DNA from: Paludibaculum sp.
GTDB taxonomy: Bacteria; Acidobacteriota; Terriglobia; Bryobacterales; Bryobacteraceae
NCBI GenBank assembly: GCA_036504135.1
Contig: DASXVP010000001.1
Span: 26,216 to 90,215 of the forward strand
Reading direction: 5' to 3'
DNA: 64,000 bases
The notes under the pieces were generated by a model. The model saw only the letters and a list, made by a program, of their open reading frames with translations, made no database searches and had not been told where the DNA came from. Numbering within the stretch: position 1 is the first letter of the stretch; every line of letters begins with the position of its first letter. Of the stretch, positions 5,893 to 64,000 are shown in pieces. The position numbers and the translations under genes are program-made.

Positions 5893-8322
5893 GTGAAAAC
5901 CATCGGCATCCTACTCCTGGCCATCACTATTGCCTTCAGTCAGCAACCCGCCGGCCCAGCCCTCCCAGCAAAAGACACCCCCCTCCGCAAGTCCTCCCTG
6001 CTCCTCCGCGAAGGCAAAACCGACGAGGCCCGCATCGAGCTCCAGCGCCTCCTCAAAGCCAATCCCAACGACGCCGAAATCTGGTACCAACTCGCCCGCG
6101 CCTACCTCCTCGATTTCTACCAGGGCCTCGATTACCAGAAACGCCGTGTCTCCCTAGCCCTCGCCATGGAGTCCCTAGATGGCGCCATCAAACGCAACCC
6201 GGACCACATCCCCTCCCTCCGCGCCAAGGCCGTCATCCACGCCCGCGCCGAGCTCCTCTACTACGACCCCAACAAGTCCTACGAACTCGCCCAGCGCGTC
6301 GCCAAGCTCGAACCCCACGCCAACGGCTTCCTCATCAATCTCTCCGAGTGGCTCTCCGGCGAGGTCCGCTTCACCACCGAAAGCGGACACCGCGTCCCCC
6401 ACGATCCCCTCGTCGGCCTCGACCGCTCCATCGAACTCCTCGACCACGTCATCGACACCGCCCTGCCCTTCAGCACTGAAGAGAGCGCCGCCCTCTTCAT
6501 CATGGCCAACGCCCTCACCCGCCGCGGCAACTTCGCCGATTCCATCCTCTATTACAAACAGGCCATGGCCCGCACACAGGACCTCGAGCAGCGCCTCGGC
6601 TGCCTGCGCGAAATGGGAGCCAGCTTTTACCGCATGGGCGATTTCCCCGAGGCGGCCCGCTGCTTCTATCAGGCCCTGCAACTGCGCCTGAACACCGTCG
6701 ATCAATGGCTCCTGAAAGTCGCCATGGATCAGATGAAAGGCCCCAAGCCCGACCTCCCGAAAAATGTCATCTTCCCCGCCGCCGAGCCCGTCATCGACAA
6801 GACCAACCCGCCGCTGCTCGCCTTCAAGGACATCGCGCCCGAGCTCGGCGTCAACCGCTACGACGGCAACGGCACCGCCTCCTGGGGCGACTACGACGGC
6901 GACGGCGATCTCGATCTCTTCGAGTGCGGTAGCGGCTCGTTCATGAAAGTCTTTCGCAACGACGGCGGCAAGTTCACCGACGTCACCGACGAAATCGGCC
7001 TCGCCAAAGTCCCCTCCGGCTATAGCCTCAACCTGGTCGACTACGACAACGACGGCCGCGTCGATCTCTACATCTCCCTTAACGGCTGGAGCGGGCCCAT
7101 GAAGAACCGGCTCTACCACAACACCGGCGGGCACTTTGAGGACGTCTCCGCCAAGAGCGGCGCAGACGACCCCGGCTCCGGCTTCAGCGCCATGTGGGGC
7201 GACCTCGATAACGACGGCTGGCTCGATTTCGTCGTCGCCAACGGCGTCATCAAGGACGGCTCCACCCCGCAGATTTACCGCAATAATCGCGACGGCACTT
7301 TCACCAACATGACCCTCGCCGCCGGCATCAAGGAGCCGCCGTCCTACGGCGCCATCGGCATCGCTCTCGGCGATTACGATAAGGATGGCCGCCTCGACAT
7401 CCTCATCAACGGCCTCGACCCCGCCCCCACGCGCCTCTATCACAACGAGGGCAACTGGAAGTTCAAAGAGGTCTCCCATAAGGCCGGCGTCGTCCATCCC
7501 CTCCACAACGGCTTCGTCTGCCTCTTCTTCGACTACAACAACGACGGCTGGCCCGATATCCTCACCACCTCCCTCGCCCACTGGGACTCCGCCGTCGAGG
7601 CCCTCAAGGCCGGCTTCTCCCGCCCCAACGCCCGCGCCATGCACCCCGACGTCTGCCGCCTCTTCAGGAACAACCAGGACGGCACCTTCACCGACGTCAC
7701 TTTCGAGGCCAAACTCTTCTACCCCATGGGCGTCATGGGCGGCGGTGTGGCCGATCTCGACAACGACGGTTATCTCGATCTCTACTTCGGTACCGGCGAC
7801 CCCCAGATGAGCCGCCTGGAGCCCAATCACTTCTTTCGCAACAACGGCAACGGCACCTTCACCGATCTCACCAGCTACGTCGGCTTCGCCCGCCCCGGCA
7901 ACAAAGGCCACGGCGTCACATTTGTCGATATCGATGACGACGGCGATCTCGACATCTACGCCCAACTCGGAGGCCATTACCCGGGCGATCAGGCCTACAA
8001 CGCCTTCTACCGCAATCTCAAAGGCAATCAGAACCACTGGCTGGAAGTGCAACTGGAGGGTGTCAAGAGCAATCGCTTCGGCGTCGGCGCCCAACTCACC
8101 CTGAAGTCCGGCGATCTCCTCGTCTACCGCGAAGTCAAGGGTAGCGAGGGCTTCGGTTCCACCAACCCCTACCGCCAGCACTTCGGACTCGGCCAGCGCA
8201 CCAGGATCGATTCACTCGAGATCCGCTGGCCCAGCGGCGTCAGGCAGGTGTTCAAGGACCTCGAACATAACCACATCATCGCCATCCGCGAGGACAACGA
8301 CCAATCGAAACGCCTGAAATAG
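5893..8322 (+). CDS. CRTAC1-family protein (TPR + FG-GAP/VCBS repeats + ASPIC/UnbV C-terminal domain)
   Basis: GTG start and signal peptide. Repeated DxDxDG motifs (DYDGDGDLD, DYDNDGRVD, DLDNDGWLD, DYDKDGRLD, DYNNDGWPD, DLDNDGYLD, DIDDDGDLD). C-terminal RFGVGAQL...GSEGFGSTNPYRQHFGLG...IRWPSG. Confidence 0.85.
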   Translation: MKTIGILLLAITIAFSQQPAGPALPAKDTPLRKSSLLLREGKTDEARIELQRLLKANPNDAEIWYQLARAYLLDFYQGLDYQKRRVSLALAMESLDGAIKRNPDHIPSLRAKAVIHARAELLYYDPNKSYELAQRVAKLEPHANGFLINLSEWLSGEVRFTTESGHRVPHDPLVGLDRSIELLDHVIDTALPFSTEESAALFIMANALTRRGNFADSILYYKQAMARTQDLEQRLGCLREMGASFYRMGDFPEAARCFYQALQLRLNTVDQWLLKVAMDQMKGPKPDLPKNVIFPAAEPVIDKTNPPLLAFKDIAPELGVNRYDGNGTASWGDYDGDGDLDLFECGSGSFMKVFRNDGGKFTDVTDEIGLAKVPSGYSLNLVDYDNDGRVDLYISLNGWSGPMKNRLYHNTGGHFEDVSAKSGADDPGSGFSAMWGDLDNDGWLDFVVANGVIKDGSTPQIYRNNRDGTFTNMTLAAGIKEPPSYGAIGIALGDYDKDGRLDILINGLDPAPTRLYHNEGNWKFKEVSHKAGVVHPLHNGFVCLFFDYNNDGWPDILTTSLAHWDSAVEALKAGFSRPNARAMHPDVCRLFRNNQDGTFTDVTFEAKLFYPMGVMGGGVADLDNDGYLDLYFGTGDPQMSRLEPNHFFRNNGNGTFTDLTSYVGFARPGNKGHGVTFVDIDDDGDLDIYAQLGGHYPGDQAYNAFYRNLKGNQNHWLEVQLEGVKSNRFGVGAQLTLKSGDLLVYREVKGSEGFGSTNPYRQHFGLGQRTRIDSLEIRWPSGVRQVFKDLEHNHIIAIREDNDQSKRLK

Positions 8323-57991: not shown

Positions 57992-59161
<1,170 letters not shown>

Positions 59162-60511
59162 TTAGGCGAGGCCGTATTCCTTGAGGCGGTACTGGAGGGT
59201 GCGGAGACTGATGCCGAGCTCGCGGGCAGCGTGGGTACGGTTGCCTTGATGGCGCTGGAGGGCCTCCTTGATCGCGCGGCGCTCGAGGTCCCGCATATTG
59301 AGGGTGCCGGCGGCAGCGCTGAGGGGATCTCCGTTGGCGCCGGCGAAAGGGAGGTGCTCCGGGAGGATGGATTCGTCGGCGAGGATGGCGGCGCGTTCGA
59401 TGGCATTTTCGAGTTCACGGACATTCCCGGGCCAGGGGTGAGCGCGGAGGGCGTAGCGGGCCTCGTCGCTGAGGCGGAGGTTGGGTTTCTCGAAGTGGCG
59501 GGCGGCGCGGCCGAGGAAGAGCTCGGCCAGGGCGTCGATATCGGCGGGGCGCTCGCGGAGCGGGGGGATCTCGATGGGGAAGGTGCTGAGGCGGAAGTAG
59601 AGATCGGCGCGGAAGCGGCCTTGCTGAACGTTGCGTTGCAGATCCTGGTTGGTAGCGGCGATGATGCGGACATCCACGGGGATGGGCTGGCCGCCGCCGA
59701 CGCGTTCCAGGACGCGCTCCTGGAGCACGCGGAGGAGCTTCGACTGGAGAGCGGCGTCGAGCTCGCCGATTTCATCGAGGAAGAGGGTGCCGCCGCCGGC
59801 GCGTTCAAAGACGCCGCTGTGGCGATCCGTGGCGCCGGTGAAGGAGCCGCGCTCGTGGCCGAAGAGTTCACTTTCGATGAGCGTGGGTGACAGGGCGGCG
59901 CAGTTGATGGCAGTGAAGGACTTGGAGGCGCGGCGGCTGTGGGCATGGAGGCAGCGGGCGATCACCTCTTTGCCGACACCGCTTTCGCCGAGGAGGAGGA
60001 CGGTGGCGGGCGTGGGCGCGACGCGCTGGAGGAGGCCGAGGATGTGGATCATGCGCTGATCGCGGGCGACCATGGCTCCGCACATGCCTGGATTCTCGGG
60101 CGTGGGCGGCGGGGCGGGTTCAGGCGAGGCGGTGTTGAGGGCGAGGGTGCGGCGGACGAGACGGCGGAGCTCGTCGGGGCTGCGGAGGGGCTTTTCGAGG
60201 TAGTCGAGCGCGCCGCGCTTCATGGCGTCGACGGCGGTGGAGACGGTGCCGAAGCCGGTGATGAGGACGAAGGGAGTTTGGGGGGCGTGTTCGGAGAACC
60301 ATTTCTGCACGTCGAGGCCATCGCCGTCGGGGAGCTTGAGGTCTGAGATCACGAGCGAGAAGGATTGGTTTCCGCAGAGGCGCCGGGCGTCGGCAACTTT
60401 GGCGGCGGTCTCGACGGGATAGGCTTCGCCGGCGAGGATGGTTTCCAGCAGTTTGCGGAAGCCGGGATCGTCATCGACGACCAGAATGGGATTGATCATT
60501 TCGTGCTCCAT
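59162..60511 (-). CDS. sigma-54-dependent response regulator (NtrC/ZraR-like)
   Basis: REC domain (ILVVDDD...SDLKLPDGDG), AAA+ domain (GESGVGKE, GSFTGA, ESELFGHERG) and C-terminal HTH. An alternative start at 60499 makes an ATGA overlap with the kinase stop. Confidence 0.93.
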   Translation of the reverse strand: MEHEMINPILVVDDDPGFRKLLETILAGEAYPVETAAKVADARRLCGNQSFSLVISDLKLPDGDGLDVQKWFSEHAPQTPFVLITGFGTVSTAVDAMKRGALDYLEKPLRSPDELRRLVRRTLALNTASPEPAPPPTPENPGMCGAMVARDQRMIHILGLLQRVAPTPATVLLLGESGVGKEVIARCLHAHSRRASKSFTAINCAALSPTLIESELFGHERGSFTGATDRHSGVFERAGGGTLFLDEIGELDAALQSKLLRVLQERVLERVGGGQPIPVDVRIIAATNQDLQRNVQQGRFRADLYFRLSTFPIEIPPLRERPADIDALAELFLGRAARHFEKPNLRLSDEARYALRAHPWPGNVRELENAIERAAILADESILPEHLPFAGANGDPLSAAAGTLNMRDLERRAIKEALQRHQGNRTHAARELGISLRTLQYRLKEYGLA

Positions 60512-61599
60512 CGAATCTCGGCGCGGGCGCCAGTGGGCTGCGCACCGGTGAGCTCAACATTTCCGTTTAGTGCCCGCACCAGATTGCGGACGATGGCGAG
60601 GCCTAGGCCGGTACCCTGGGCCTTGGTGGTGACGAAAGGCTGGAAGAGTTTCGGGCGCAGATCCGGGGGGATGCCGGGGCCGTTGTCGGTGACTCGGATG
60701 AGCCCCGGCTCAGCATGCAGGCTCACCTGATCACCGGCTTCCATGGCGTTGCGGAGGAGATTAAGGACGGCCTGTTCGAGCATGTCAGGATCGGTGCGGA
60801 GCTGGAAATCGGCAGTGTGGAAGACGACACCGGGGGCGTGGGGACGAAGGCGCGTTTCCATTTCACGCCAGGAGATGACGCGCCATTTTGGCTGGGGAGC
60901 GCGGGCATAGGCGAGGAGGTCCTTGACGAGCTGCTCCAGGCGGCTGGTCTGTTCGAGAGAGGTGTCGAGCCAGAGACGGATGTCTCCGGTGGCGCGTTCC
61001 TGGGCGAGCTGGAGGAAGCCCTTGAGGGCGCCGAGCGGATTGCGGATCTCGTGGGCGAGGACGGCCGACAACTGGCCCAGCTCGGCGAGGCGGGCGAGGC
61101 GCGCCTGTTTCTCGCGAGCCCAGACGGCGTAGGCCATGAGGAGGGCCATCATGAGGGCGACGGCGATGGAGAGGTAGAGGTTCTGGCGGGGACGGGCGGT
61201 GAGGAAATCGGCGGCGGCGGGGTTGAGGTCGAGGCGCGCCAGACGGGGACCGGCATCGGTGTGATAGGGGACCCAGGCGCGGAATCCGGCTGGGGAGGAC
61301 GCTTCCAGACGGAAGAGCTCCTGGCCATCGAAGAAGGGACGGATGGAGGGCTCGGTGACCGAATCGGATGCGCCGTAGCTGCGCACGTCGAGCAGGGCGG
61401 GTTCCTCGTCGATGACCTGCTGGATGGAGACCTGCTCGAGGCGGGCGGCGATTTCGGCGGCCTTGTTGCGCAGGAAGGCGCCGCGGGCCTGTTCGAGCTC
61501 GCGCAGCATGAGCAGCGCGTTGACGAGGAGGATGAGCGGCAGGACCAGGAGCAGAACGGCCACGACCCGCCAGATCAGCCTGGATGGAATCGGAGACAT
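60496..61599 (-). CDS. sensor histidine kinase with a periplasmic loop between two TM helices
   Basis: H-box LAHEIRNPL, N-box LLRNAMEA and G-boxes DNGPGI / GTGLGLAIV. Confidence 0.9.
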   Translation of the reverse strand: MSPIPSRLIWRVVAVLLLVLPLILLVNALLMLRELEQARGAFLRNKAAEIAARLEQVSIQQVIDEEPALLDVRSYGASDSVTEPSIRPFFDGQELFRLEASSPAGFRAWVPYHTDAGPRLARLDLNPAAADFLTARPRQNLYLSIAVALMMALLMAYAVWAREKQARLARLAELGQLSAVLAHEIRNPLGALKGFLQLAQERATGDIRLWLDTSLEQTSRLEQLVKDLLAYARAPQPKWRVISWREMETRLRPHAPGVVFHTADFQLRTDPDMLEQAVLNLLRNAMEAGDQVSLHAEPGLIRVTDNGPGIPPDLRPKLFQPFVTTKAQGTGLGLAIVRNLVRALNGNVELTGAQPTGARAEIRWSTK

Positions 61600-61644
61600 A
61601 CGTCTGAATGTGGGGATGCAGAAACTGCGCGGAAGGTGACCGGG

Positions 61645-62040
61645 CTATTCGCGGGGTACGGCGCCCTGGCGCATGCCGCCCATCCACAGGGGCCAGCCAT
61701 TGTCGTCGCGGAGCCTGAGGACCTTTTTGGTTGTGGGCAGTTCGACGCGAATCGCCACGACGTTTTCGCCCATTTTGTAGCCCTTGGCTTCCAGCAGGTC
61801 ACCGGCCTTGGGTGTGAAGTTTTCCTGGACGAGGTAGCGCATGGCGCCGAGATAGAGTTTTACGGAGCCCTTGGCCGTGTTGACTTCGAGGAACGGCATG
61901 CCCTGCCCCATGGCGATCTGGACGCGGGTGATGGTACCGCGGACTTCAACGACAGGATTCTCCGCGATGGGCGGCTTGGGCTCGTCGCCGGCCCAGACCG
62001 GCGACGAGATCAGGAACATGGCGAGCAGCCAGTTCTTCAT
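61645..62040 (-). CDS. secreted hypothetical protein (resembles MamS/MamX-domain periplasmic proteins)
   Basis: 131 aa ORF with signal peptide. ...GMPFLEVNTAKGSVKLYLGAMRYL...GDLLEAKGYK...LRLRDDNGWPLW pattern recalled from that family. Confidence 0.55.
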   Translation of the reverse strand: MKNWLLAMFLISSPVWAGDEPKPPIAENPVVEVRGTITRVQIAMGQGMPFLEVNTAKGSVKLYLGAMRYLVQENFTPKAGDLLEAKGYKMGENVVAIRVELPTTKKVLRLRDDNGWPLWMGGMRQGAVPRE

Positions 62041-62062
62041 GGCACTAGTCTCCAGCTCCAGC

Positions 62063-62296
62063 TTACTTCTTCACTTGAGCGCGCGGGCAGGAGGCGGCGT
62101 TGGGACAGTTCTGGCATTGGGTTTTGTCGCACTGGCCGGTACACTTCTGGCCGTCACGTTTGCATTGGCCCTGGCCTTGCCGCTGGCACTGACCCTGGCC
62201 GCGGCCCTGACCTTGGCCCTGACCACCAGCTTGGCCCGCAGCGAGCGGCGCGGCGAGGGCGACACAAAACACCATCATGGTAACGAACGTCTTCAT
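62063..62296 (-). CDS. small secreted GQ-repeat / Cys-rich protein (77 aa)
   Basis: ATG at 62296 follows GAGGTG. MKTFVTMMVFCVALAAPLAAGQAGGQGQGQGRGQGQCQRQGQGQCKRDGQKCTGQCDKTQCQNCPNAASCPRAQVKK: a signal peptide, then 7 Cys in about 35 residues. Confidence 0.55.
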   Translation of the reverse strand: MKTFVTMMVFCVALAAPLAAGQAGGQGQGQGRGQGQCQRQGQGQCKRDGQKCTGQCDKTQCQNCPNAASCPRAQVKK

Positions 62297-62320
62297 GGAA
62301 TCACCTCTGCGGGGTGTTGT

Positions 62321-62336
62321 TGCAGTTGGCGGGCCA
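62321..62336 (-). promoter_or_regulatory. sigma-54 (-24/-12) promoter
   Basis: Minus strand TGGCCCGCCAACTGCA against the consensus TGGCACG-N4-TTGCW, with exact GG-to-GC spacing. The predicted transcription start is about 14 nt upstream of the ATG at 62296. Confidence 0.55.
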
Positions 62337-62379
62337 ACGAGAAACCGCAGTGAAATCAGCGGAAAGGGTGAGGAGACGG

Positions 62380-62412
62380 GCGGCAAATGCGCAGCTGGTG
62401 CATGCTTGCCGC
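62380..62412. promoter_or_regulatory. dyad symmetry upstream of the sigma-54 promoter (candidate activator binding site)
   Basis: GCGGCAA-19 nt-TTGCCGC, with internal GCATGC and CAGCTG palindromes. It is centred roughly 85 nt upstream of the predicted transcription start. Confidence 0.35.
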
Positions 62413-62432
62413 GCAGAGCTTGCATAGCGATG

Positions 62433-64000
62433 TCAGCGGATGGCGTAGTCGCTATCGAGGCGCACGGTCTCGCCGGGTTGGAGTAAGCGCTTCTTCGACC
62501 AGAGGCCGAGGATGACGCGCCGCTGGCTTTTCGCGGACCAGTTGAGCACGCCGCGATCGGCCTGCTCAGGCGGGAACCGGTTGATGATTTCCAGGGACGC
62601 GCCGGGGTTGAGGATGCGCCACTCGCCGTTGGGGTTTCGGTCGGCGGCGTAGGTTTCGGTGCCGGTGGGCTGCTGGGCCGGCTCGACCATGCGGCGTTTG
62701 ACGGGCGAGCCGGCGGCGGGCTTGAACTCGACGGACGCGTCTTCCATGGGGCCGGCGTCGGAGTCGAACTGCGACTGGATGACGGCATCGAGGGGCGTGG
62801 TGGAGGCGTTGCCGGCGATGGTCTCGGTATGGAAGCTCGGCTCGGCGGCGTCGAGGCGGATAGTGCGGCGGAGCGTGAGCCCTTGGGGGGTGATGCCGGT
62901 GAGGATGGCCTCGTGTTTGTCTGGCGAAAGCTCCACGGCCCATCGCACGGTGTAGGCGGGGGCGTTGACGAAATCGGGATAGACGGACGCGCTGAGGCCG
63001 GTGCGGTTGGGATAGGCGGTCTCTTCGGCGGCGGGCTGATTGAGGAGCTCGCGGCCGCTGCGTTTGTCGATGATGTGGACGACACGCGCATTGAGCTCGG
63101 GGACGAGATCGAGGCGGAGAGTGGAGCTTTCGAGAGTGACGACGCGGTAGGCGCGGAGGGTGGCGGTGAAGTTGGCGTCGTCCTTGGCGAGCTCGGCCTC
63201 CTCGCTGAGGCGGGTGACGCCGAGGGCTTTGGCGTCGGTGACAAAGGCGGGCCACTCGGTCTTGAGACGATCCAGTCCGGCGGGCGCGTACCAGCCATCG
63301 CGGATGGTGAACGCCTGGAGCTTGCGGAGCTCGAGGTAGCGCAGGGAGAGTTCAGCCTGGCGGATGCGACGGCGGATGGTGTCGTCGGTGGCCTGGGCGA
63401 GGGCGGCGCGGATCAACTGTTTGGCCTGGTTGAGGCGGGTGTCGCTCATGCGCGGCGCGCGGCAGCACCACCAGTGCTGGGCCTCGCCCTGGGGCTCGGG
63501 GCGGACGAGGCTGTGGAGCAGATCGAGGTAGGCGCGCATGGAGGGCGCGGCGGGGCCGTAGTAGATCTCGTGGAACTCGTCGACGGTCTTCCAAAAATCT
63601 GTGCGCGGATCCCAGAGCATGCGGGCGATGACGTAGGCGCGGAGAGGCGCCTCCGAACCGCCGGCAGGGGTGCTGCCCTGCATGAAGAGGCCGGCGACTC
63701 CGTTGCGGTGGTACATGGGGATATCGGCGGCGAGCTCGTCGAAATCGGGCACGGGGAGGAGGTAGTGAGAGAAGTTTGCGTTGTAGTGCCAGACGTAGAT
63801 GTTGCTTGTGATTTTGGCCCAGGCCTTGAGGTTTTTGACGATGTAGGCGTTGTGGGGGCACTGTTCGTAGGGGTGGGCATTGCAGGCGCCGATGGGACAC
63901 ATGCGGATGCGGACATTGGGGCGGGGGCGGGTGAGGGAGGGCGGGGCCTCGGAGTAGAAGTAGGCGAGAGTGTCGATGAGCTTACCGGGGTGAGACTGGG
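62433..64000 (-). CDS. DUF4838-domain glycoside-hydrolase-like protein, C-terminal part (gene continues past the right edge)
   Basis: The frame is open to the window end (...LIDTLAYFYSEAPPSLTRPRPNVRIRMCPIGACNAHPY...YVWHYNANF...), a pattern recalled from DUF4838. Confidence 0.65.
   Translation of the reverse strand, partial: QSHPGKLIDTLAYFYSEAPPSLTRPRPNVRIRMCPIGACNAHPYEQCPHNAYIVKNLKAWAKITSNIYVWHYNANFSHYLLPVPDFDELAADIPMYHRNGVAGLFMQGSTPAGGSEAPLRAYVIARMLWDPRTDFWKTVDEFHEIYYGPAAPSMRAYLDLLHSLVRPEPQGEAQHWWCCRAPRMSDTRLNQAKQLIRAALAQATDDTIRRRIRQAELSLRYLELRKLQAFTIRDGWYAPAGLDRLKTEWPAFVTDAKALGVTRLSEEAELAKDDANFTATLRAYRVVTLESSTLRLDLVPELNARVVHIIDKRSGRELLNQPAAEETAYPNRTGLSASVYPDFVNAPAYTVRWAVELSPDKHEAILTGITPQGLTLRRTIRLDAAEPSFHTETIAGNASTTPLDAVIQSQFDSDAGPMEDASVEFKPAAGSPVKRRMVEPAQQPTGTETYAADRNPNGEWRILNPGASLEIINRFPPEQADRGVLNWSAKSQRRVILGLWSKKRLLQPGETVRLDSDYAIR

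Follow-up and report, generated by a model that had tools for sequence, protein, structure and literature searches.

Gene content and layout of the locus

We analyzed a 64,000-nt stretch of Paludibaculum sp. (Acidobacteriota, Bryobacterales) DNA (contig DASXVP010000001.1; hereafter the window; G+C content 63.4%), in which four genes follow one another on the minus strand in the order mini, p131, sensor histidine kinase and NtrC-type activator (hereafter the regulator), behind a sigma-54-type promoter and a tandem pair of putative activator sites (Table 1). The junctions are short, 22 nt between mini and p131 and 45 nt between p131 and the kinase gene, and the kinase and regulator genes overlap by 16 nt; an alternative regulator start at 60499 would leave a 4-nt ATGA overlap with the kinase stop codon. 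Neither a sigma-70-like promoter nor an intrinsic terminator was predicted between 58900 and 62600, and the layout suggests that mini, p131, kinase and regulator are co-transcribed. No second sigma-54 activator, second histidine kinase, tRNA gene or Rfam family at gathering threshold was found in the window.

A first-pass annotation had described four co-directional genes with short or overlapping junctions behind a sigma-54 promoter. All four genes are present with such junctions, and both the promoter and the activator sites proved to be conserved in relatives. The span that it assigned to the module, 59162 to 62412, encloses the genes and the promoter but ends 11 nt before the outer edge of the activator sites at 62423. 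It had also proposed positive autoregulation, which is the natural reading of a layout in which the activator is encoded within the operon that it presumably drives.

Table 1. Positions of the genes and sequence elements of the locus, its neighbors and the second unit of related loci
Feature	Position	Strand	Description
mini	62296-62063	(-)	77 aa; Sec-type signal peptide
p131	62040-61645	(-)	131 aa; secreted single-domain oligonucleotide/oligosaccharide-binding (OB)-fold protein
Sensor histidine kinase	61599-60496	(-)	367 aa; HisKA, HATPase_c
NtrC-type activator (regulator)	60511-59162	(-)	449 aa; receiver, AAA+, Fis-type helix-turn-helix (HTH)
Sigma-54-type promoter TGGCCCGCCAACTGCA	62336-62321	(-)	-24 GG at 62335-62334; -12 GC at 62323-62322
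Tandem upstream activator sites	62423-62391	(-)	Two 11-bp palindromic cores GCA-N5-TGC
First activator core GCAAGCTCTGC	62423-62413	(-)	
Second activator core GCACCAGCTGC	62401-62391	(-)	
Shine-Dalgarno-like AGAGGTGA	62308-62301	(-)	Precedes mini start codon; read from the sequence
Gap block GGTCACC..CGCAGTTTCTGCATCC	61641-61614	(-)	Between p131 and kinase genes
Third GCA-N5-TGC core	61628-61618		Inside the gap block
DUF4838 gene	62433-64000	(-)	Directly upstream of the module; continues past the right window edge
CBM48-plus-esterase gene	57992-59137	(-)	Begins 24 nt past the regulator stop
Second unit with promoter, related loci	L001 4701-5782; L005 4150-5230; L007 4099-5220; L006, L008, L009, L011, L012		

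A conserved sigma-54-type promoter and putative tandem activator sites

The sole sigma-54-like element in the 136-nt gap between the DUF4838 gene and mini is TGGCCCGCCAACTGCA, whose 3' end lies 25 nt from the mini ATG. It matches the consensus TGGCAC-N5-TTGCW at 10 of 12 specified positions, with GG and GC exactly 10 bp apart. An element of the form TGG-N9-TGCA aligns at a constant distance from the ATG in all 10 mini-bearing loci, in flanking DNA that has diverged. Moreover, a GG-N10-GC element matching at least 8 of the 12 consensus positions lies 17 to 51 nt before the first gene in 20 of 26 non-redundant loci, compared to 5.5% of random windows of the same DNA; the 26 loci are related to each other, so these figures are a contrast and not a P value. 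The contrast is large. By its conservation in relatives the element is more than a chance match, and its position is conserved. Transcription is predicted to depend on RpoN and on the activator.

The two activator cores are spaced 22 bp center to center, with positions of roughly -85 and -107 relative to the inferred start of transcription. The tandem GCA-N5-TGC pair is unique in the window, where a search with the tandem-site pattern detected no other regulon member. In the related loci the pair occurs once per locus, always in the same place, and could be aligned in 10 of them. We therefore take these sites to be the probable binding sites of the regulator, and the pair combined with the GG-N10-GC signature should be usable for genome-wide regulon mapping. 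A ribosome-binding site, GGAGGTG or AGAGGT, is kept in all aligned loci.

The p131-kinase gap holds a further conserved element, a block that encloses a third GCA-N5-TGC core and is kept in nine loci of the same gene order. By analogy with glnLp, this block may be an operator or a basal promoter for the kinase and regulator genes.

In the sub-lineage of L012 to L014 and L031 to L033 the aligned promoter element reads TGGCGA-N5-(A/G)TGTAA, with GT replacing GC at -12.

Conservation and rearrangement in relatives

The comparison covered 25 genome loci and several metagenome loci (cited by L number where one has to be told from another). The p131-kinase-activator triad is present in 25 Acidobacteriota genome loci. 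The full order of mini, p131, kinase and regulator recurs in nine further distinct loci, among them that of the cultured iron reducer Paludibaculum fermentans (PMC8407742), which carries the whole locus and in which mini was overlooked by the gene caller. A search of the literature on Paludibaculum, sigma-54 and cytochromes returned only the P. fermentans genome announcement, in which the system is not described. In five loci (L013, L014 and L031 to L033) mini has been lost by a visible deletion; the sites, p131, kinase and regulator are kept, and the ribosome-binding-site region and the last mini codons remain as a scar.

In ten loci with p131 identities of 38 to 57% (L015 to L017, L019, L022 to L026 and L030) the kinase and regulator genes are divergent from p131, and L037 has the same arrangement. 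Here a site pair of the type (T/C)GCGCAA-N3-(C/T)TGCGC, a GG-N10-GC promoter and the p131 start follow one another with order and spacing unchanged. No consistent sigma-54 promoter was found before the divergent kinase and regulator genes, so autoregulation would be limited to the co-directional arrangement, and no gene is consistently found downstream of p131 in these loci. Both arrangements conserve the kinase sensor domain and the regulator HTH, the latter almost without change although the overall identity of these relatives is only about 57%, which argues that the systems are orthologous. L027 and L028 have p131 without flanking kinase and regulator genes, yet retain the sites and the promoter. 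Remote p131 homologues, at 31 to 36% identity, again stand beside a kinase and a sigma-54 activator; one such contig has planctomycete-type PSCyt/DUF1501 neighbors. Judged by these comparisons, the conserved unit is p131 plus kinase plus activator, with p131 as the conserved predicted direct target, and the single autoregulated operon of the window appears as one arrangement among several.

The same data bear on the simplest alternative, namely that the promoter is a chance match and that the small open reading frames (ORFs) have nothing to do with the two-component system. As fortuitous adjacency would have it, the window shows no enrichment of the bare promoter motif, and single GCA-N5-TGC cores are common in GC-rich DNA. 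We nevertheless give this explanation almost no credence, because diverged loci keep the gene order, the place of the promoter and the paired sites, because the linkage survives both rearrangement to the divergent orientation and a fall to 31% identity, and because mini appears to be under purifying selection (see below).

p131 is predicted to be a secreted OB-fold protein

The signal peptide of p131 ends in SSPVWA, followed by GD. An AlphaFold2 (AF2) model built from 17 homologues (mean predicted local distance difference test score [pLDDT] of 78, core above 90) is a closed five-stranded beta-barrel with a helix between strands 3 and 4, that is, an OB fold. Foldseek searches with the model returned 55 PDB matches at E <= 1e-3, and the 50 best of the 55 are almost all OB-fold domains, with E about 1e-4; the best matches are to tRNA-synthetase anticodon-binding domains (LysRS), TiaS, Stn1-Ten1 and CcmE. 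A weak tRNA_anti-codon match was obtained for the homologue P0026. As modeled, p131 is a generic OB fold.

Searches of the local Pfam and NCBIfam collections gave no match to p131, and no sequence relative of known structure was found in the PDB. PF26390 (MamS_MamX) was not reported for p131, P0023, P0025 or P0026 by the local Pfam scan, a scan that never returns PF26390, not even for proteins to which precomputed annotation assigns it unmarked, and is hence uninformative in this respect. Precomputed tables place PF26390 on many p131 relatives, with matches that range from those marked "weak" to unmarked ones, and p131 shares 26 to 30% identity with tandem MamS_MamX-annotated neighbors. It is probable that p131 is a distant member of the MamS_MamX domain family. 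A full-text literature search for PF26390 found no paper.

Profile searches at E <= 1e-3 gathered a p131 family of 1186 clusters (50% identity) with single-, double- and triple-domain forms. Its conserved motifs are GQGMP, LG(S/A)MRYL, NF.PKAG (NFNPKAG) and LRD..GWPLW.GG (LRDE.G.PLW.GG), and M47, M66 and W118 are conserved residues. Many homologues carry low-complexity tails next to the OB domain, which are Gly/Arg-rich and often contain Cys, His or Met. At the N terminus these include RGMGACC, GGCCC and GRRGRGR, and at the C terminus ...HHHHHGRG, ...CRYCG...GGHHHCGHW, ...CPECCG...NPCPH and ...GQGQGKGWGGGKG; among the tailed homologues are P0034 (...HHHHH), P0048 (...CRYCG..GGHHHCGHW), P0054, P0057 and P0060. 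The family has been annotated only as "hypothetical protein", and it gains here a regulatory setting comprising a dedicated kinase, a sigma-54 activator, an enhancer motif and a promoter.

At one locus of the divergent type, L037, the p131 homologue (6001-6758) overlaps by 4 nt a CcmH-like gene (PF03918; periplasmic, thiol/haem-handling). A tandem MamS/MamX-like gene and a gene for a small Gly/Arg/Met/Cys-rich secreted protein also adjoin it.

mini is a clade-specific cationic peptide

The mini product has a signal peptide, MKTFVTMMVFCVALAAPLAA, followed by GQ (MK, a hydrophobic core, then LAA before the G). The mature peptide has 57 aa, of which seven are Cys and 47% are Gly or Gln, and a net charge of +7; its conserved tail reads C-x3-C-x4-C-x2-C-P-x4-C-P-R-A-Q-x-K-K. 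Orthologues occur in nine further distinct loci. Throughout this set the mature peptide has a net charge of +7 to +9 and 4 to 8 Cys, a Sec signal is present in all, and changes in the length of the GQ repeat stay in frame. The G+C content at third codon positions peaks in the reading frame of mini, and synonymous differences from orthologues are at least as numerous as non-synonymous ones in most of the pairs compared. By these measures mini is a genuine gene under purifying selection. No Pfam (E <= 0.1) or NCBIfam family was found for it, and a PDB sequence search gave nothing above noise. The possibility that mini is a lipoprotein was ruled out, as the Cys of its signal peptide is Ser in orthologues and there is no lipobox context.

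The composition of mini recalls the tails of the p131 family. The p131 homologue of L020 has a GQGQGKG tail resembling the mini repeat, and we infer that mini could be a detached, free-standing form of the tails that are fused to the OB domain in other homologues. Such an origin would imply a functional link to p131, and the Cys/His/Met content of the tails would suggest metal or thiol chemistry. An electrostatic pairing of mini with p131 is unlikely, the OB core being not acidic enough.

A peptide gene at the head of an operon with a putative receptor and activator, and with positive feedback built in, invites comparison with the peptide autoinduction loops of Gram-positive bacteria, in which case mini would be an autocrine or quorum signal sensed by the kinase. 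We consider this very unlikely. mini is absent from L013, L014, L031 to L033 and all divergent loci despite the conserved sensor domain, its sequence and repeat length vary freely, and a Sec-exported 57-aa peptide would remain in the periplasm of a diderm cell. Comparison of the loci indicates that mini is clade-specific and dispensable, which makes a role as signal unlikely.

A cationic-peptide module is a second reading of mini, which could be defensin- or bacteriocin-like with p131 as its carrier or immunity protein; alternatively, p131 might bind foreign cationic peptides, as do the BOF proteins YgiW, YdeI and SipA, while the two-component system senses the envelope damage that such peptides cause. 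The charge, Cys content and Sec signal shared by all mini orthologues are in keeping with this, as is the recurrence of small secreted Gly/Arg-rich Cys proteins next to family members, and two-component-controlled periplasmic OB-fold proteins bind cationic antimicrobial peptides in Vibrio cholerae (PMC6370654). The locus, however, has no export, maturation or immunity genes (ATP-binding cassette transporter, protease), and p131 is itself basic and lacks a BOF match. In addition, segments like mini are fused to the OB domain in many homologues, as expected of an appendage rather than of a cargo or toxin, and the His- and Cys-rich versions of the tails point to metals. We hold a cationic-peptide module to be distinctly doubtful.

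Small secreted Gly/Arg/Cys proteins recur beside p131-family members in other loci (L001 2166-2426; L030 10244-10483 and 8825-9154; L035 5313-5645; L037 7888-8202). They have (R/K)DG(T/S)GYG or DG.CD..G repeats, then Gly/Arg/Gln/Met-rich stretches and one Cys cluster, and no family match was found for them. The repeat motif resembles the DGTGP motif of the Gly-rich family DUF5320, which was considered for these proteins and for mini and then dropped: a profile search gave no DUF5320 match at E <= 1 for six neighboring small proteins or at E <= 0.1 for mini.

A generic NtrB/NtrC-class pair with a novel sensor

The kinase consists of a first transmembrane helix, a periplasmic segment of about 100 aa, a second transmembrane helix, HisKA (1.8e-15) and HATPase_c (3.9e-22; both Pfam), with no HAMP domain. 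The regulator has the complete NtrC-family architecture, with Response_reg (1.1e-24), Sigma54_activat (4.3e-68), AAA_lid_14 (3.6e-21) and HTH_8 (4.7e-17), and GSFTGA as its AAA+ loop. Both proteins score well below every curated equivalog cut-off, GlrR included, and their best-scoring equivalogs are AtoS/AtoC, NtrC and ZraS/ZraR: the regulator scored 409 against a cut-off of 714 for AtoC, 387 against 558.6 for NtrC and 357.8 against 760 for ZraR, and the kinase 105.5 against 479 for ZraS, in an alignment confined to the kinase core (residues 163 to 361). By these scores the two proteins are a generic NtrB/NtrC-class pair with a novel sensor. A homology search with kinase residues 1 to 175 found one protein. 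The AF2 model of residues 1 to 160, which rests on two sequences (pLDDT 78.6), shows a long helix and a four-stranded sheet, and a fold search with this model gave nothing significant, weak PDC/PAS-like sensor domains appearing at E >= 0.06. The start codon of the kinase gene has no obvious ribosome-binding site.

A second sigma-54 unit in related loci

Nine loci with the gene order of the window have a second unit, located divergently upstream or one gene further off. Its full set comprises genes for a tandem MamS/MamX-like OB protein (246 to 298 aa), an extracytoplasmic function (ECF) sigma factor, a multihaem c-type cytochrome, a small secreted Gly/Tyr/Arg-rich protein and a NapH/MauN-type ferredoxin membrane protein; in some of these units no ECF sigma, cytochrome or small Gly-rich protein gene was detectable. 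The second unit has cis-elements of its own, a GCA-N5-TGC core pair and a conserved TTTCAA-N4-TTA block resembling an integration host factor (IHF) site, and in eight of the nine loci a GG-N10-GC promoter lies about 45 nt before the ATG (Table 1); in L002 no such promoter was found. MamS/MamX-like OB domains are thereby linked to clusters with multihaem cytochromes and NapH proteins in soil and wetland Acidobacteriota.

In the two relatives closest to the window, L005 and L007, the two units have a DUF4838 gene between them; of this pair, L007 has a multihaem cytochrome gene in its second unit. The DUF4838 gene of the window leaves it at the right end, so a second unit, if there is one here, would have to start past base 64000. 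Next to the lineage without mini no partner unit is present, and the link between the two units is thus frequent rather than obligatory.

These findings from relatives change the first-pass annotation in two respects and bear it out in a third. The module had been called self-contained, a description at odds with nine related loci in which a second unit carries the same site pairs, in eight of them with its own sigma-54-like promoter. The two small proteins had been treated alike, whereas p131 is the universal partner of the two-component system and mini a clade-specific, dispensable addition. The proposal had been staked on the neighborhood being conserved in at least some relative, and the gene order is indeed kept.

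Proposed mechanism

On balance, we lean with moderate confidence toward a two-component, sigma-54-dependent stress-response operon with p131 as its main periplasmic output and a cue that is likely metal or redox. The kinase would read a periplasmic cue via its sensor domain of about 100 aa and phosphorylate the NtrC-type activator, which would bind the paired GCA-N5-TGC cores, located some 85 and 107 bp upstream, and open the promoter at 62336-62321. The single transcript would supply mini and p131 to the periplasm and, at the same time, extra kinase and activator, giving positive feedback. The third site, in the p131-kinase gap, could serve as a basal, self-limited promoter or as an operator, matching the design of glnA-ntrBC; a basal promoter at this position would allow an operon that otherwise only activates itself to get started. 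p131, aided by mini, would be the main periplasmic output that binds the stress agent or damaged targets and modulates the kinase. By analogy with ZraP, CpxP and YgiW, such binding combined with feedback on the kinase is probable.

The regulatory logic of the operon is well supported by the conserved order, promoter and sites. The cue is most likely periplasmic metal or redox stress, to judge from the metal-ligand-like tails of the p131 family and from the multihaem cytochrome and NapH-type ferredoxin protein of the second unit. The envelope-sensing role that the first-pass annotation gave to the module is, like any metal specificity, putative.

A number of observations weigh against this interpretation. 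With respect to the promoter, TGGCCCGCCAACTGCA deviates from the consensus at two core positions (TGGCCC, CTGCA), no rpoN lies within the window, and the promoter pattern alone is at chance level, with 16 matches in the window (two mismatches or fewer) against 28 expected, so that the case for the promoter rests on comparison with relatives. With respect to a metal or redox cue, the p131 of the window has no Cys or His and its short tail has only Met, Arg and Gly, its match to PF26390 is only indirect, and the kinase sensor domain has one conserved His, no Cys and no obvious metal site; the resemblance of its model to known sensor folds is weak. Net charges of +7 for mini and +4 for the p131 core make a simple electrostatic pairing of the two unlikely. 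Finally, genes for the cytochrome, NapH and ECF proteins were sought in the window and none was found, and the partner unit is absent beside some relatives (L013, L014, L031 to L033).

The role of p131 can also be drawn differently, as that of a co-sensor that presents a ligand to the kinase sensor domain, in the manner of TorT for TorS, LuxP for LuxQ or ChvE for VirA. In that case p131, kinase and activator would be co-expressed as the three parts of one receptor, and mini would be a clade-specific add-on. p131 is strictly linked to this kinase/activator family across arrangements and down to 31 to 36% identity, the kinase has a sensor domain of only about 100 aa in which neither a ligand pocket nor metal ligands are obvious, and OB folds are ligand-binding modules, all of which would suit a co-sensor. 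On the other hand, most divergent loci have the sigma-54 promoter on p131, with no consistent one on the kinase and regulator genes; a receptor subunit produced only after activation would be unusual, and accessory proteins that are induced, ZraP and CpxP for example, usually act as effectors or inhibit by feedback (PMC4987338). We view the co-sensor role as possible but rather unlikely. It is compatible with a stress-response operon in which p131 is the main output.

The preferred stress-response operon may in turn belong to something larger. Tentatively, and with low confidence, we suggest that the module could provide the control and the periplasmic part of an undescribed, larger system for periplasmic electron transfer or metal(loid) transformation. 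Relatives would add to that system the tandem MamS/MamX-like OB proteins, the ECF sigma factor, the multihaem cytochrome and the NapH-type, quinol-linked ferredoxin protein, each behind enhancer sites of the same kind. If so, the system would correspond to the MamX/MamZ iron-redox machinery in bacteria that are not magnetotactic, and it would offer a first testable function for the MamS/MamX domain. In Paludibaculum and other iron-reducing Acidobacteriota that function could be, for example, to bind Fe, further metal species or the surfaces of minerals.

Relation to known systems

The first-pass annotation had compared the architecture to ZraPSR of E. coli and Salmonella while regarding the small proteins as unrelated to ZraP, and both statements agree with the present data. 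In common with ZraPSR, the locus pairs a periplasm-sensing kinase with an NtrC-type activator and has a small exported accessory protein behind a predicted activator-controlled sigma-54 promoter beside the two-component genes, which are themselves under such a promoter. The Gly/Cys/His/Met-rich tail of ZraP resembles those of the p131 family in composition. In distant relatives of the window the parallel extends to orientation, the accessory gene p131 and the kinase/regulator genes pointing away from each other just like zraP and zraSR, where the sigma-54 promoters are divergent and ZraP is a periplasmic Zn-binding chaperone (PMC4987338). In contrast, the modeled p131 is a beta-barrel OB fold whereas ZraP belongs to the alpha-helical LTXXQ/CpxP family, matches of which were found for neither small protein; the kinase and regulator fall far below the ZraS and ZraR equivalog cut-offs; and the window genes make up one predicted operon with an extra gene for a Cys-rich peptide.

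YgiW-QseBC and SipA-VC1638/39 of Vibrio cholerae likewise combine a two-component system with a genetically coupled, secreted OB-fold protein of a single domain. The OB-fold gene is there either the first gene of an autoregulated operon, as in the ygiW-qseBC operon of Aggregatibacter (PMC4660874), or a divergent target, as is ygiW of E. coli. Such systems act under stress from metals, oxidants or cationic peptides (PMC4660874, PMC6370654); protection from Cd, H2O2 and cationic peptides is afforded by YgiW and SipA (PMC6370654). Unlike QseB and VC1638, which are OmpR-type and sigma-70-dependent, the regulator here is a sigma-54 activator; moreover, p131 has no match to the Pfam family BOF, to which YgiW and YdeI belong, and YgiW is not among the 50 best fold matches listed. 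Judged by these comparisons, the operon belongs to none of the ZraPSR, YgiW-QseBC or SipA systems, and the circuit design of ZraPSR, CpxP-CpxAR and YgiW-QseBC appears to have been reached convergently with unrelated parts.

The order of genes and control elements resembles glnA-ntrBC (glnALG): one or more target genes lead, kinase and sigma-54 activator genes follow, and the whole is preceded by tandem upstream sites and a sigma-54 promoter, presumably strong and activator-dependent here, with an extra activator-type site before the kinase gene. In glnA-ntrBC the gap before the kinase gene is occupied by the NtrC-repressed glnL promoter. The products differ, being exported proteins and a membrane sensor kinase here but a cytoplasmic enzyme and soluble NtrB there.

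With MamS/MamX (PF26390), p131 has in common the precomputed family matches of its relatives, and both single and tandem p131-type copies adjoin genes for c-type cytochromes and redox membrane proteins. MamX works with haem (magnetochrome) and the redox protein MamZ; to our knowledge, the MamS/MamX domain has no established function, even in magnetosomes. The present locus differs in that it has no magnetosome genes and that p131-type proteins are predicted to be soluble and secreted rather than bound to the magnetosome membrane.

CusF/CusRS likewise places a small periplasmic beta-barrel protein under an adjacent two-component system, and the conserved Met and Trp residues of p131 (M47, M66, W118) and the Met/His/Cys-rich tails of its family add to the resemblance. 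There is, however, no sequence or family match to CusF and there are no efflux pump genes, and the regulator is sigma-54-dependent.

Neighboring genes

Downstream of the operon, no terminator was predicted between the regulator gene and the CBM48-plus-esterase gene. The latter is not conserved at this place in relatives, so it is probably outside the system, and it could be co-transcribed with the operon in this genome. On the upstream side, the DUF4838 ORF was considered as a pseudogene and this was ruled out, as the frame merely leaves the window at its end; its orthologues in L005 and L007 have 835 to 884 aa. Only 9 nt separate the DUF4838 stop codon (62435-62433) from the first activator site, and with no terminator predicted after it, read-through into the module is possible.

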